This document shows positions 44,761 to 57,200 of a stretch of 57,346 nt of DNA, piece by piece. The notes below the pieces were generated by a model. It was not told the origin of the DNA and searched no databases. It was given only the letters and a program-made list of their open reading frames with translations. The first letter of the stretch is position 1. Every line of letters starts with the position of its first letter. A program made the position numbers and the translations under genes. The stretch comes from Candidatus Micrarchaeota archaeon. Its GTDB lineage: Archaea; Micrarchaeota; Micrarchaeia; Burarchaeales; JACRGF01. The stretch lies in contig JACRGF010000039.1 of assembly GCA_016212395.1 (NCBI GenBank), positions 1-57,346 on the forward strand, written 5' to 3'.

Positions 44761-45210
44761 AAGAAAATAGAAACGCTTTCCAAAAAAAAAACGTCTAGCC
44801 TCGAGGCTGGAGAGTTGGAGTTTTATTTCTTTTTTTTCTGAAAATAAAAATAGAGTTGTGAGTGTGTTGAGAGTAAATTGCGGCATTTTGTTTTACTGCT
44901 TTTATTTACCGAATGCAGTCGAAGCGGTGTTTAGTAATGGCGGGCTGAATGCCTCGCGTGAGCTAAGCACGTACACCCCCATTCTATCAAACGGATCTGC
45001 TATCCGCACCTTAAGACCGCCTAGTTTTGAGAATGGCTTCGACCTTAGATGCTTTCAGGTCTTATCCATTAGCGCGTAGCTGCCCGGCAGTGCCATACGA
45101 CAACCGGTAGACCAGAGGCGCCGAATCCCTGTTCCTCTCGTACTCTGGGATTCTTCCTCTCAGGCGATCATGCACTTCTAGGAGATACTACCGAACTGTC
45201 TCGCGACGTT

Positions 45211-45972
45211 TTGTTCATCTAATAAGGCAAATTTTTGCGTTTGGCTTCATTAAAAGAATATATTTCTTGCAAGAATTTCTCGTTATCTTGCTTTGAAATG
45301 TTAAAATAACAAACTCCGTTTCTTGGCTGATACGTCAAACCGCAACACTTGATTCCGCGCCCTTCAATAATCGTCTTAATTTCTGCCAAAGCACGTTTAT
45401 TTGCTTGACAGAAACCTATACGACCATCATTCCGTATTACACCGTCTGCATCAAAAAATCCAGAGACGTAATACTTTTGAATTTCAAATGGCGCGTTCAA
45501 GATTAATTTAGGCGTATTCCAAGAATTTTTATTTCCGATAGGAACTTCAAATACTTCGTTTAAAAACATGAAGATTGCTTTGCTGCTCAAAAACAAACGC
45601 GGGCTGCAATTTTTGTGCCTAACAATTTTGGGTTTATTGATAGGTTTGAACAGCTCAACTGTTAGACCGTTCAAAAAATTAAGCCAACTTTCGTCTTTTT
45701 GCGCAAAACTCACTTCGTATTTGCTTCCACTATCAGAGATTGTTCCATCACGCAACGCCCCAACAAAATAAGCCAATTTAGGATTCAGAAACTTGGGTAT
45801 AAACGCTTTAGCAGAATCAAAGCGCTTAGAAGATGCCACGAGAAAGTAGTCTCTCGTTTCTTCTAAAACCAAAGCATCTGAAAAACCAAAAGGGATTTTT
45901 ATTCTAGGCGTGTCCGGAAGCATGTTACTGGGTATACCTAAACGCATTTTTATTATTTTGCCCGACCAGATT
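45211..45972 (-). mobile_element. 23S intron a (about 762 nt) carrying a LAGLIDADG ORF; inserted in GGGTTCAGAA|CGTCGCGAGACAG
   Basis: Removing it joins GAGCTGGGTTCAGAA to CGTCGCGAGACAGTTCGG, restoring the universal motif (E. coli ~2590s region, a classical homing-endonuclease intron site). The boundary is ambiguous by 2 nt. Confidence 0.7.
45219..45947 (-). CDS. LAGLIDADG homing endonuclease (double-motif), intron-encoded
   Basis: Motifs are LAYFVGALRDGT and YYVSGFFDADGV. It is a paralog of the ORFs at 46877-47581 and 48840-49790, sharing W(N/E)TP...(Y/W)Y..GFFDA(D/E)G. Confidence 0.85.
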   Translation of the reverse strand: MRLGIPSNMLPDTPRIKIPFGFSDALVLEETRDYFLVASSKRFDSAKAFIPKFLNPKLAYFVGALRDGTISDSGSKYEVSFAQKDESWLNFLNGLTVELFKPINKPKIVRHKNCSPRLFLSSKAIFMFLNEVFEVPIGNKNSWNTPKLILNAPFEIQKYYVSGFFDADGVIRNDGRIGFCQANKRALAEIKTIIEGRGIKCCGLTYQPRNGVCYFNISKQDNEKFLQEIYSFNEAKRKNLPY

Positions 45973-46087
45973 CTGAACCCAGCTCGTGTAGGTCTTTAAT
46001 GGATGAACAACCCAACCTTTGGAGGCTCCTGCACCTCCAGGATGACCTAAGCCGACAGCGATGTACCAAACCGCGGGGTCGATGGGT

Positions 46088-46349
46088 ATTTGAGTGCATT
46101 TAGAATTTTTCTTCCTTGCTCAGAGGAAAAAATTTTCTAGTCAAAGCCCAATAAACCGCGCTTTTACACGAACCTTATTCTCCGTTCGATATGTTTTCTC
46201 CCATAGTCATTAATTGGACTCGACATCTACGAACGCTGCGTTCCGCCATCGACGACAAAACGTGCGTCTAGTGTGTCTATTAGGGAGAAAACGATTGGAG
46301 AACAAATGTTCGTGCGCGCATTATTGATTTACGAAAGAGCTTTATGCAT
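46088..46349 (-). other. ORF-less 23S insertion (about 262 nt) between GGTAACAGGCTCGTCGCGGGCGAGAG and ACCCATCGACCCCGCGGTTTGG
   Basis: The flanks correspond to contiguous sequence in canonical 23S (GATAACAGGCTGAT...GAGAGCTCACATCGACGG...TTTGGCACCTCGATGTCGGCT). There is no ORF above 60 aa. It could be an intron or an expansion segment. Confidence 0.55.
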
Positions 46350-46876
46350 CTCTCGCCCGCGACGAGCCTGTTACCCCCGGGGTAGCTTGTCTGACAGCTT
46401 GGACCCTAATCAATAGGGTACCAAGGTTCGTTAAGCCCGACTTTCGTCTCTGCATCCCACGCTTTTAAGGATACAGTCAGCCCTGCATTTGTCTTTAACC
46501 CTTGACGTCGGTTTTCTGACCCGACTAAGCAGAGCATTGGGCGCCCTTGTTTCCTTATCGAGGGCGTACCGCCCCAGCCAAACAGCCCACCTGCTGTTGT
46601 CCTCTCTCAAGTTAGACGTATAGCAATCTTTGATTGGTGTTACAATTTCGCCTATCCGCACCCCGGAAGGTACGGCATGACGGCTCCCAATTACGCTCCG
46701 CAAAAACCACGATACATCAACAACAGGCTACTGTAAAGCTCCACGGGGTCTTCGTTTCCCCCTAGAAGTCCTCGGCATCTTCACCGAGTAGTGAGTTCAC
46801 CAGGTCCCGGGTAGGGACAGTGGGACGCTCGTTACGCCATTCATGCAAGCCACCAATTAAGCGGCGAGGTATTGCG

Positions 46877-47581
46877 TCACGATAGGCCATAAAGATCAAA
46901 GAGAAGCTTGAAACGCGCATTTTTTTCTGGATGCGATGTTCCAATCTCTTTATAGAATTTGAGGACATTTGAAGATCCGGAAATAGGCAAGTCGTAATCC
47001 AGCGTATTTTTATTCTTCTTCGGACCCCAAACTTTTCCACAGCGTATTCCTTTATTTTCAATAATGTTTTTGAGGTCTATTAAAACTGGACAGGCTTCAT
47101 CTTTCCAAGATTGATGCAAAATTATCCTCATTTTCGGTTTTGTCACAACAATTTTTTTGAGGTAGTCTTCTACATGCGCTATTTCTCCTTCAGCATCAAA
47201 AAAACCTTGAACGTACCATTTTTGTAGTTCAGGGTATTTTTTAACGAAGGCAGGCGTATTCCAAAGATTTCTTCCGGTCGGATGCTGAAAAGTTTCAGAC
47301 AACCGAGAATAAATATCTCTCGAATAAACAACGAGTCTTTTGACTCTGTTGCTTCCGGGTTTTTTCTTTATTTTTTCCGCATCAACTTTCAGAGTTGATA
47401 AAAAAATCTCTTTGATTGCGTCTATCCATTCGTCTGAATTTTGCGCAATGCTAATTTCATAATGGTTTTGATAAGGTTTAGGGAATGTTCCATCCCTCAT
47501 TGCACCAGCCAAGTAAAATAATTGAGGGTTTACTTCAAACCCATTTATTCTATCTAAAACTGGTCTTGTTGGTATGCACAT
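46877..47581 (-). CDS. LAGLIDADG homing endonuclease, intron-encoded
   Basis: Motifs are LFYLAGAMRDGT and WYVQGFFDAEGE. The last 5 codons run into the downstream exon. Confidence 0.85.
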   Translation of the reverse strand: MCIPTRPVLDRINGFEVNPQLFYLAGAMRDGTFPKPYQNHYEISIAQNSDEWIDAIKEIFLSTLKVDAEKIKKKPGSNRVKRLVVYSRDIYSRLSETFQHPTGRNLWNTPAFVKKYPELQKWYVQGFFDAEGEIAHVEDYLKKIVVTKPKMRIILHQSWKDEACPVLIDLKNIIENKGIRCGKVWGPKKNKNTLDYDLPISGSSNVLKFYKEIGTSHPEKNARFKLLFDLYGLS

Positions 47582-56365: not shown

Positions 56366-56427
56366 TTACAAGTTTTTGCACATCGACTTAAAAAATTTGG
56401 CATTGGGCTACAGATTCTGTAATCCGT
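55728..56427 (-). mobile_element. 16S intron (about 700 nt, E. coli ~250 region) with LAGLIDADG ORF
   Basis: It splits CCCGATTAGGTAG(A)|ATTGGCGGGGTAACGGCC. The intron ends carry complementary TACAGAA / TTCTGTA. Confidence 0.65.
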
Positions 56428-56641
56428 CTACCTAATCGGGCGCAGACTCATCCTACAGCAGACGCGCTCCAATTCGCGCGCTGTTTCGCCCACAAAGCAT
56501 TCCAGCATTCGTGGACTATCGAGAATTAACCACAATTTCTCGTGGGTGCTCTCGTCTATAGGGCAGATTGTCTACGTGCTACTCAGCCGTATGCCGTCAC
56601 CGCAAGTGCGGTGGCAGACTTGCATGGATTAATCGGACTTT

Positions 56642-56680
56642 TATCTGCTTCCAGAACCCAAAACTGGGGACTGAAAACAT
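56642..56680 (-). other. Possible 39-nt mini-insertion near the 16S 5' end
   Basis: CTGCTATCAGA[TGTTTTCAGTCCCCAGTTTTGGGTTCTGGAAGCAGATAA]AAGTCCGATTAATCCATGCAAGTC compares with canonical CTGCTATCGGGGTCCGACTAAGCCATGC. CAGAT is duplicated at both junctions. Confidence 0.4.
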
Positions 56681-57183
56681 CTGATAGCAGTACCCTCCAG
56701 CAGGATCAACTGGAGTTCAACACCTCTTATCATCAGTGTCAATCCTCTTCGAAAATCCTGTCTGAGAGTAATTATAATGTCAAAAGCTGTTTTACTTTTA
56801 AAGAACAGCGTTGGGCAGCACTCACGTCCCGCAATGCTTTTTTACGGCATTGCATCAGAGTGTTGCTCCTTGTTCCGTTATATTTCTCGAAGCCTGAGTC
56901 TAACTCAAAAAAACTTGAGTTACCATTCAACACGCACGACGATAAAGCCGCGCGATGAGATGCCCTCGCCTAGCAAGAGCAAATACCACAAAAAAAACCT
57001 CTTTCATTGCTGAAAGAGAACGAGCAACCCGTCTTCGGATTGCCTGCTCTCGAAACCAATTGTTCCGAGATAGAATACCATAGGGATTGTAAACCTGATT
57101 CTTCATCGCACGGGAGAAAGATTCCCGCGCTTCAACCAACACGATTCCTACAGCCAGTGGTAACCAACAATTATGAACACAAC

Positions 57184-57200
57184 CCTTTAAATACGTTTGC
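57184..57200 (-). promoter_or_regulatory. Candidate rRNA operon promoter (BRE/TATA) GCAAACGTATTTAAAGG
   Basis: This minus-strand motif closely matches the GCAAACGGTTAAATAG 16-mers at 11021 and 12628. It lies about 470 nt upstream of the 16S 5' end. Confidence 0.45.

Follow-up and report, generated by a model that had tools for sequence, protein, structure and literature searches.

Organization of the rRNA operon

The 57,346-nucleotide (nt) contig JACRGF010000039.1 of a Candidatus Micrarchaeota archaeon (GenBank assembly GCA_016212395.1), referred to here in its entirety as the window, carries one 16S-tRNA(Ala)-23S ribosomal RNA (rRNA) operon on its minus strand, with Rfam matches to the archaeal small subunit (SSU) and large subunit (LSU) rRNAs within 45.8-56.7 kb. 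Both rRNA genes, and the spacer tRNA between them, are interrupted by insertions, which we designate S1 to S9b, L1 to L6, and T1 (Table 1). The evidence assembled below allows us to propose with high confidence that the operon of this DPANN archaeon has been colonised by bulge-helix-bulge (BHB) introns, ten of them in the 16S gene, six in the 23S gene, and one in the tRNA.

Insertion junctions were set by comparing the minus strand first to conserved motifs and afterwards to relatives that have no interruptions. The 16S gene is interrupted after E. coli positions 40, 251, 523, 693, 781, 1055, 1101, 1226, 1391, and 1397, leaving 11 exons (36, 212, 229, 171, 88, 273, 46, 132, 165, 6, and 130 nt); removal of the insertions, which amount to 3,893 nt or 72.3% of the locus, takes it from 5,381 to 1,488 nt. 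The 23S gene is interrupted after positions 803, 1912, 1927, 1938, 2472, and 2588, leaving seven exons (868, 1148, 15, 11, 522, 116, and 286 nt), and shrinks from 5,766 to 2,966 nt once 2,800 nt (48.6%) are taken out. At every one of the 16 junctions, alignment of the spliced sequences to uninterrupted rRNAs from Micrarchaeota or Methanosarcinales is gap-free, and the spliced lengths agree with the roughly 1492 nt and 3.0 kb anticipated by a first-pass annotation of the window, which had been made from the letters and a list of open reading frames (ORFs). The guanine-plus-cytosine (GC) content is 53-56% in exons and 39% in introns.

The first-pass annotation had recognised 13 interruptions. 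Each of them exists, essentially at the size given (775, 143, 562, 697, 816, 121, 38, 700, and 39 nt in 16S; 762, 262, 865, and 915 nt in 23S), but the count was too low: ten interruptions are present in 16S and six in 23S, and two of those listed are composite. The 775-nt insertion consists of introns of 88 nt (S9a) and 687 nt (S9b) separated by the 6-nt exon GCACAC, and the 865-nt insertion consists of introns of 50, 36, and 776 nt (L2, L3, and L4) separated by exons of 15 and 11 nt. Reading S9 as two introns, each with a perfect motif, yields the product CTCCTT-GCACAC-ACCGCCCGTCA, which is identical to uninterrupted relatives there, whereas a one-intron reading leaves two mismatches.

Both rRNA genes extend beyond their Rfam matches, which end at 52225 for 16S (889 nt before the 3′ end of the gene) and at 45806 for 23S (881 nt before the true 3′ end), because the last exons lie past long insertions in each. 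The Rfam alignments contain large unaligned blocks, and they report full model coverage with terminal model positions forced onto intron sequence. Alignment to SSU and LSU covariance models, which the first-pass annotation had recommended for fixing the junctions, therefore recovered the genes and missed their 3′ ends. The spacer tRNA is similarly obscured. ARAGORN found no tRNA in the raw 57-kb window, the spacer included, and called a normal tRNA-Ala once 50995-51070 (T1) had been removed. In the relative L043 the spacer tRNA-Ala (L043:4557-4628) is uninterrupted, and T1 is therefore not universal in the group. Altogether the operon contains at least 16 rRNA introns and one tRNA intron of the enzyme-spliced type, or 17.

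Table 1. Features of the interrupted rRNA operon, in order of transcription. Sites are E. coli positions; helices are written as 5′-side strand/3′-side strand; an arrow marks the predicted cut within a bulge.
Feature	Coordinates	Strand	Size and site	BHB motif	Remarks
16S processing stem, 5′ strand	56864..56894	-		BHB, cut after 56872; outer helix 17 bp, central helix 3/4, inner helix 7 bp	pairs with 51217-51247
16S rRNA gene	51336..56716	-			SSU_rRNA_archaea match, exon map, gap-free junction alignment to uninterrupted Micrarchaeota 16S
S1	56640..56680	-	41 nt, SSU 40	central helix TATC/GATA, 4 bp; bulges AG↓A and AA↓A; closing stem 9 bp	hairpin mini-intron
S2	55727..56427	-	701 nt, SSU 251	AGGT/GCCG, 3/4 pairs; closing stem 4+8 bp, one U.U mismatch	LAGLIDADG ORF
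S2 LAGLIDADG ORF	55715..56365	-	216 aa		Pfam LAGLIDADG_3 E=3e-8; final 12 nt in 3′ exon
S3	55460..55497	-	38 nt, SSU 523	CCAG/CTGG	530 loop, within 515F primer site
S4	55169..55288	-	120 nt, SSU 693	GTGG/CCAT, 4 bp; closing stem 2+9 bp with 1-nt bulge	ORF-less, A/T-rich, low-complexity
S5	54265..55080	-	816 nt, SSU 781	GAAC/GTTT; stem 9 bp	LAGLIDADG gene with TAA
S5 LAGLIDADG gene	54255..55034	-	259 codons		one frame, TAA at 54702-54704; homologous to S9b ORF
S6	53295..53991	-	697 nt, SSU 1055	GGTG/CACT, 4 bp; stem 4 bp	LAGLIDADG ORF
S6 LAGLIDADG ORF	53295..53942	-	215 aa		Pfam LAGLIDADG_3 E=8e-9
S7	52687..53248	-	562 nt, SSU 1101	CCGG/CTGG; stem 13 bp	LAGLIDADG-like ORF
S7 LAGLIDADG-like ORF	52725..53207	-	160 aa		first motif GLWKSR, without acidic residue
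S8	52412..52554	-	143 nt, SSU 1226	GGCU/GGCU, 4 pairs (2 G.U); stem 4 bp	ORF-less
S9a	52159..52246	-	88 nt, SSU 1391	CTCC/GGAG; bulges TT↓T and AT↓G; stem AACC/GGTT	ORF-less
Micro-exon GCACAC	52153..52158	-	6 nt, SSU 1392-1397		decoding centre
S9b	51466..52152	-	687 nt, SSU 1397	GCAC/GTGC; bulges AC↓T and AC↓A; stem AGAGGG/CCCTCT	LAGLIDADG ORF
S9b LAGLIDADG ORF	51433..52137	-	234 aa		Pfam E=2e-5; extends 33 nt into 3′ exon
16S processing stem, 3′ strand	51217..51247	-		cut before 51234	
Spacer tRNA-Ala(TGC)	50981..51128	-			G3:U70; weak Rfam tRNA match; 76-nt interruption at 59/60
T1	50995..51070	-	76 nt, tRNA-Ala 59/60	full hBHBh′; outer helix 5 bp, central helix TTCA/TGAA, inner stem 4(+7) bp	
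23S processing stem, 5′ strand	50681..50706	-		BHB, cut after 50696; central helix TTAC/GTAA, outer helix 5 bp, inner helix 14 bp	pairs with 44898-44923
23S rRNA gene	about 44925..50690	-			LSU_rRNA_archaea match; junctions aligned to L043 and Methanosarcinales 23S
L1	48908..49822	-	915 nt, LSU 803	GGCG/CGCT; stem 12 bp	LAGLIDADG gene with TAA
L1 LAGLIDADG gene	48911..49790	-			one frame, TAA at 49161-49163 right after GFFDAEG
L2	47710..47759	-	50 nt, LSU 1912	GGGG/CTCT, 4 pairs (2 G.U); stem 14 bp	hairpin mini-intron
L3	47659..47694	-	36 nt, LSU 1927	CTCT/TGAG, 3/4 pairs; 8-bp stem shifted by one nt, giving a relaxed bulge	hairpin mini-intron between 15-nt and 11-nt micro-exons
L4	46872..47647	-	776 nt, LSU 1938	GCGT/ACGC; stem 11 bp	LAGLIDADG ORF
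L4 LAGLIDADG ORF	46877..47581	-	234 aa		Pfam E=3e-7
L5	46089..46349	-	261 nt, LSU 2472	CGAG/CTCA, 3/4 pairs; stem 5 bp	ORF-less
L6	45211..45972	-	762 nt, LSU 2588	GTTC/GAAC; stem 7(+7) bp	LAGLIDADG ORF
L6 LAGLIDADG ORF	45219..45947	-	242 aa		Pfam E=5e-6; weak Protein Data Bank (PDB) match to intein endonuclease domains
23S processing stem, 3′ strand	44898..44923	-		cut before 44903	

A bulge-helix-bulge motif at the insertion junctions

The BHB register was taken from textbook tRNA intron geometry and from the operon's own 16S processing stem, the latter read by eye and later confirmed by a scan, which placed both the 16S and 23S processing stems in the same register as the intron junctions. 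On the 5′ side the register consists of a 4-nt strand (Ha) and two further nucleotides before the cut, followed by one nucleotide and a strand of the inner stem; on the 3′ side the second inner-stem strand is followed by a 4-nt strand (Hb) that pairs with Ha, two nucleotides, the cut, and one nucleotide of the 3′ exon. In each intron the 5′ exon ends with six nt made up of one helix strand and two bulge nucleotides, and the intron itself ends with the complementary four nt and two bulge nucleotides.

This register was applied to junctions already fixed by homology, with random position pairs from the same region serving as the control. BHB-type geometry, comprising a 4-base-pair (bp) helix, two 3-nt bulges that hold the splice sites, and an intron-closing stem, is found at every junction. 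The central helix has all four pairs at 14 of the 17 junctions, compared to 2.4% of random pairs, and three of four pairs at the remaining three (S2, L3, and L5), compared to 16%. A complete central helix together with a closing stem of at least 3 bp is present at 13 of 17 junctions and in 0.16% of random pairs. Where a junction could be slid among equivalent positions, the BHB-compatible position scored best. The intron ends are also alike, 12 of the 17 introns starting with A and 12 finishing with AA. For S2 and S9, naive cuts at the first resumption of conserved sequence gave no BHB motif and produced mismatches to relatives. The BHB-predicted cuts were adopted at both sites, as their products are nearer to the relatives than those of the naive cuts; the S2 product, GGTAG-TTGGCGGGG, restores a helix present in relatives that is formed by the strands TTGGCGGG and CCCGCCAA.

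Covariation was examined at SSU 1101, the site of S7 and the one site with enough homologues. Homologous introns occupy the identical position in at least eight relatives, and four different inner-stem sequences occur among them. In an alignment of eight junction constructs, nine of ten closing-stem pairs show changes in both strands, and pairing holds in 93.8% of cells, compared to no more than 41% when the register is slid by 1-3 nt. Across the eight introns, pairing of the central helix is 100%, and shuffles never reach the observed covariation score. Homology-fixed junctions, the excess of the motif over random pairs, and covariation at this site together support the identification of the insertions as archaeal BHB introns, the assignment that the first-pass annotation had favoured over group I or group II introns.

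The outer, exon-exon helix measures 0-3 bp in all 16 rRNA motifs, 5 bp in T1, and 5 and 17 bp in the processing stems. Because the outer helix is this short, the rRNA introns are of the relaxed HBh′ type, and the strict hBHBh′ form is confined to the tRNA intron and the processing stems. The search for canonical hBHBh′ motifs advised in the first-pass annotation thus recovers the motif, although mostly in its relaxed form. One further candidate, a seventh 23S intron of 43 nt at 47921-47963, was left uncounted. It sits in a 54-nt extension specific to the 23S of the window (47916-47969), at the tip of a variable hairpin, and has a central helix CTAG/CCAG with three of four pairs, a 6-bp stem, and the bulges AA↓A and AA↓T, which are typical of the operon; its quality is within chance expectation.

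Group I introns have been reported in Micrarchaeota rRNA, at LSU 1923, 1931, and 2593 and at SSU 1498 (Nawrocki et al., 2018; PMC6125680), and both L4 (LSU 1938) and L6 (LSU 2588) lie close to classic group I sites. Nevertheless, an Rfam scan of the whole operon returned no group I, group II, or other relevant family at E≤1. Outside its ORF, each long intron has only about 30-110 nt of non-coding sequence (33 nt in L6, 71 nt in L4), too little for a ribozyme. Moreover, the BHB central helix is a full 4 bp in both L4 and L6, and their closing stems measure 7-11 bp. Introns of groups I and II were rejected on these grounds, and a self-splicing group I identity is, in our view, extremely improbable even for part of the long insertions.

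A different objection would be that the insertions are never ligated out, and are either retained as expansion segments or excised without ligation, in the style of bacterial RNase III intervening sequences, to leave a fragmented rRNA. Splicing is read here from the DNA sequence, and the 54-nt extension at the tip of the variable 23S hairpin could indeed be a plain expansion. Expansion segments and bacterial intervening sequences, however, occupy variable helix tips, whereas all 16 sites of the rRNA introns lie in conserved core, including the 530 loop, the decoding centre (1391-1397), LSU 1912-1938, 2472, and 2588. Exons of 6, 11, and 15 nt would become free fragments and be lost, and the endonuclease motif stands at every junction, with cuts that restore the canonical sequence exactly. 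Retention or fragmentation is accordingly a quite improbable account of the locus, and BHB splicing with ligation is preferred.

Endonuclease genes and the proposed decay series of the introns

Double-motif LAGLIDADG reading frames are present in eight introns (S2, S5, S6, S7, S9b, L1, L4, and L6), and both motifs are visible in all eight, in agreement with the number given by the first-pass annotation. The genes of S5 and L1 each carry exactly one in-frame TAA and are otherwise open, for which early pseudogenisation would be the simplest reading. Pfam LAGLIDADG_3 is matched by six of the ORFs, among them, weakly, the C-terminal half of S5 (E=0.01). BLASTP connects the L1 gene with those of L4 and L6 (E=1e-18 to 1e-21), and S5 with S9b, so that at least five groups can be separated ({L1, L4, L6}, {S5, S9b}, S2, S6, and S7), consistent with the earlier claim of at least three families. 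A PDB sequence search for named relatives of the endonucleases matched intein endonuclease domains weakly, and S6, S7, and S9b had no match.

The S7 family is related to the L4/L6 family according to hhalign (probability 87%, E=4e-6), and departs from the usual motif. Across seven aligned homologues the first motif is an invariant GLWK.R, in which K replaces the acidic residue, while the second motif, FDG.GG, is kept. Judging from these motifs, the S7-family endonuclease may be a nickase or have a single active site. Homologues are found in L069, L043, L008, L113, L041, and L072; in the closest relatives they lie in 16S introns, and in others they lie downstream of 16S, probably in 23S introns.

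Several details of the other endonucleases were also noted. If the S9b intron is circularised, its junction reads ...GTG CAC-TAG (51433-51465, 52150-52152), so that a stop codon falls precisely on the point of ligation; the ORF of S2 likewise finishes in the exon (GGGGTAA), but without a junction stop. The S5 (54700-54790) and S9b (51800-51900) endonucleases have a cysteine-rich linker between their LAGLIDADG halves, CCGRYPCCPR...CLYC and CKSGKANACKSKSACLHCKRFFC, respectively, which from its composition might bind metal.

By content, the introns at the locus fall into six with intact genes, two with a nonsense codon, four that are ORF-less (88-261 nt), and four hairpins (36-50 nt). Mini-introns lie 6, 11, and 15 nt from endonuclease-bearing introns, S9a beside S9b, and L2 and L3 beside L4. 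A recent spread of one mini-intron family within the genome was considered and rejected, as BLAST among the 17 introns gave low-complexity matches alone. When intron DNA was compared to the introns of relatives by BLAST, nothing significant was found except 27 nt of S7. In the relative L043, the L5 site or a position adjoining it holds an insertion of about 830 nt that encodes a LAGLIDADG protein; the proposal that L5 is a remnant of this intron was left undecided, there being no DNA similarity between them. Other Micrarchaeota have, 3 nt downstream of S3, an intron of 27-35 nt that shares its geometry but differs in helix sequences, and in the 515F site where these short introns occur the unclassified archaeon L034 has an intron of 928 nt.

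Integrity of the assembly and of the exons

Ribosomal RNA operons are typical break points of metagenome assemblies, and the locus might be suspected of being a chimera in which rRNA fragments and mobile elements of different organisms have been joined. Logan per-run assemblies of two runs (SRR12113395 and SRR12113407) match 57235-55234, 54090-51017, and 48650-46736 at 100% identity, over 7 kb and 22 exon-intron junctions. They cover 11 of the 17 introns, and because the assemblies of two runs are identical there, a chimera is unlikely for these segments. On the other hand, the Logan contigs stop inside the low-complexity S4. The exons, for their part, combine into a 16S and a 23S that are coherent, full-length, and of one lineage. 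We consider a chimeric origin to be highly implausible. The possibility of mis-assembly, which the first-pass annotation had raised, is thereby answered for the 11 covered introns, while S5, L1, L5, and L6 are uncovered and S4 is covered in part.

The spliced 16S keeps 95.5% of the 644 columns that are invariant in 48 other archaea, and six other Micrarchaeota keep 96.0-97.0%. There are 29 departures from invariant columns, 25 of which are shared with other Micrarchaeota. These figures indicate that the exons are under constraint, with no decay. They bear directly on a further alternative, in which this copy of the operon is non-functional and decaying, with another, uninterrupted operon in the genome supplying the ribosomes. 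Just 57 kb of the genome is in view, and two endonuclease genes are already broken. Exon conservation, however, equals that of other Micrarchaeota, the helices show compensatory changes, and only four departures from archaeal-invariant positions are unique to the 16S of the window. In addition, the splice motifs are intact at all 17 sites, and a Micrarchaeota 16S signature retrieved 15 metagenome relatives, none of which was an uninterrupted copy from the same species. A single rRNA operon is usual in DPANN genomes of about 1 Mb, which also counts against a second copy. A decaying copy is, in our judgement, improbable, and we continue to treat the interrupted operon as the functional one.

Several observations nevertheless weigh against a reading of the locus as an operon of functional BHB introns. 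First, the central helices of S2, L3, and L5 have just three of four pairs, and L3 requires a 4-nt bulge. Second, the S9a and S9b motifs share the first G of GCACAC, which is bulged in S9a and paired in S9b; the two motifs therefore cannot fully form simultaneously, which suggests either ordered splicing or tolerance of partial motifs. Third, with an outer helix of 0-3 bp, the rRNA motifs would not be expected to be cleaved by a strict alpha4 or alpha′2 endonuclease, and the EndA gene lies outside the window, in which no RtcB gene was identified either. Fourth, splicing, ligation, and the formation of intron circles are inferred throughout from the DNA. Finally, independent assembly support is absent for S5, L1, L5, and L6 and stops inside S4, and, with 57 kb in view, a second, uninterrupted operon elsewhere is possible.

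Comparison with known rRNA introns

An exon-pattern scan of species-representative genomes yielded at least 120 loci, and the best 16S matches among those listed are all Candidatus Micrarchaeota metagenome-assembled genomes (MAGs) at 82-85% identity. Insertions were counted in 88 archaeal 16S loci, among the matches listed, that had more than 1,200 nt of 16S coverage: 62 have no insertion, and the maximum is five, in the Micrarchaeota locus L041. The 15 metagenome relatives, at 80-91% identity, have 0-3 insertions in 16S. The description of the 16S intron content as extreme in the first-pass annotation is borne out by these counts. The Micrarchaeota MAGs L041, L053, and L008 have 4-5 insertions each in 16S, and multi-intron 16S genes are therefore common in Micrarchaeota.

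BHB introns of archaeal rRNA are already known and well described, LAGLIDADG genes, hairpin mini-introns, and micro-exons included (PMC4496867), and 16S introns have been noted in the Micrarchaeota ARMAN-2 and Mia14 (PMC5498576); the density seen here is probably a record. Aeropyrum pernix has three introns in its single operon, and our search of the literature on DPANN rRNA genes found no comparable intron load. The first-pass annotation had placed the insertions among the established archaeal rRNA introns of Thermoproteales and Desulfurococcales; the kind of intron is indeed known, but the host is a member of the Micrarchaeota, a phylum whose own rRNA introns are on record (PMC5498576; PMC6125680).

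The introns described in Thermoproteales, Desulfurococcales, and Aigarchaeota (Jay and Inskeep, 2015; PMC4496867) fall into the same classes as those of the window, namely LAGLIDADG-encoding introns, hairpins under 50 nt, and ORF-less remnants. Both sets have BHB cores at their junctions, lie in the most conserved regions, and break universal primer sites. SSU sites 781 and 1391 are shared, whereas eight of the ten SSU sites (40, 251, 523, 693, 1055, 1101, 1226, and 1397) are unlisted in that survey, which recorded 13 loci over all of its taxa together, compared to ten introns in the single 16S gene described here. The hosts also differ, being crenarchaeal hyperthermophiles in the survey and, in the present case, a DPANN archaeon with rRNA exons of about 55% GC, and intron GC is 57% there compared to 39% here. 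Pairs of a hairpin and an endonuclease intron have precedents in sites 901/908, which are 7 nt apart, and in Pyrobaculum oguniense, where the S1213 endonuclease co-converts the hairpin intron S1205, 8 nt away (PMC4496867).

Within the same phylum, ARMAN-2 (Candidatus Micrarchaeum) has tRNA introns at non-canonical positions, including 59/60, and in vitro its epsilon2 EndA cleaves motifs of the relaxed kind (Fujishima et al., 2011; PMC3239211). Both organisms share relaxed BHB motifs, which call for an endonuclease of broad specificity; the ARMAN-2 examples, however, are tRNA introns of tens of nt, whereas the window has 16 rRNA introns of up to 915 nt. The group I introns of DPANN archaea (Nawrocki et al., 2018; PMC6125680) likewise count Micrarchaeota among their hosts and interrupt rRNA genes; many of them encode homing endonucleases, and some are found alongside BHB introns in one gene. 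Unlike them, the insertions described here have no detectable ribozyme core and no room for one, and all 16 in rRNA fit the BHB geometry. Finally, rRNA insertions in bacteria of the candidate phyla radiation (PMC11270868) and 16S group I introns of Thiomargarita also include several LAGLIDADG-bearing insertions that defeat primers and annotation in ultrasmall or unusual prokaryotes, but these have bacterial hosts and are self-splicing or have an undefined mode of removal, in contrast to EndA cleavage of BHB motifs.

Features surrounding the operon

A 19-nt direct repeat, ACTCGGGCCCGTAGCTCAG, is present at 51176-51194 and 51114-51132 on the minus strand and comprises 4 nt of leader and 15 nt from the start of tRNA-Ala. 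After the upstream copy come a 9-bp hairpin and the sequence CGGTCCC, a potential pairing partner of GGGCCCG; this copy resembles a degenerate tRNA-like element and may be a duplication footprint or a processing signal. The repeat was also considered as the trace of a D-loop intron and rejected: by eye, the central helix would be the palindromic AGCT alone, with flanking helices of 1-2 bp. A simple duplication is the more likely of the two.

The 5S rRNA gene (16930-17045, minus strand) is uninterrupted and unlinked, with about 28 kb between it and the 16S-23S operon. Among the genes neighbouring the operon are those for a GAF-PAS histidine kinase (40928-43231) and a response-regulator protein (43331-44503), together with ones for a P-type ATPase, an Na+/H+ exchanger, CDC48, and a class I lysyl-tRNA synthetase. 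The synthetase, CDC48, the P-type ATPase, and the histidine kinase and response regulator are consistent with an archaeon. Two very long minus-strand ORFs are found at 631-6483 (1,950 aa) and 23947-29712 (1,921 aa).

Proposed processing and origin of the introns

By analogy to established archaeal BHB introns, EndA would cut between the second and third nucleotides of each 3-nt bulge, and an RtcB-type ligase would join the exons and circularise the introns. The same two enzymes would presumably act on the BHB motifs of the 16S and 23S processing stems. Because most of the rRNA motifs are without an outer helix, a broad-specificity enzyme is needed, and from the lineage and the relaxed motifs we suggest that the host endonuclease is of such a type, like the epsilon2 enzyme of ARMAN-2.

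We hypothesize that the introns entered through homing of LAGLIDADG endonuclease genes, were tolerated because the host splices them, and then decayed through a series that ends in hairpins. Mini-introns within 6-15 nt of an endonuclease intron probably spread with it by co-conversion, as in the P. oguniense pair. An alternative for the ORF-less mini-introns at previously uncatalogued sites (SSU 40, 523, 693, and 1226; LSU 1912 and 1927) is that not all of them came in by homing or co-conversion, that they instead spread independently of any endonuclease gene, for example through reverse splicing by EndA and RtcB followed by recombination, and that S9a and S9b are spliced in an obligatory order. 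We consider this unlikely. If it were true, the lineage would be a natural case of ongoing proliferation of protein-spliced introns, and the overlapping motifs at the 6-nt micro-exon would force an obligatory splicing order in which S9a and S9b are never recognised together.

Implications

The introns split the 515F, 781-806, and 1391-1406 primer regions, and amplicon surveys would therefore miss the organism. Automated annotation of such loci would also go wrong, producing truncated rRNA genes and endonuclease genes labelled as hypothetical proteins.

The interest of the locus lies in a probable record and in a set of substrates, with no new mechanism. With 17 introns in all, a 16S locus that is 72% intron, and a 6-nt exon in the decoding centre, this is probably the densest enzyme-spliced intron set reported for a prokaryotic rRNA operon, and it supplies natural substrates on which the recognition of relaxed motifs, the order of splicing, and the ligation of micro-exons could be studied. 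A single locus displays the life cycle of homing-endonuclease introns, from intact genes through nonsense mutants and remnants to hairpins. For the organism itself, 17 introns and two processing-stem BHB motifs imply about 19 cut-and-join cycles per operon transcript, and ribosome production would rely on EndA and RtcB carrying out each of them correctly.

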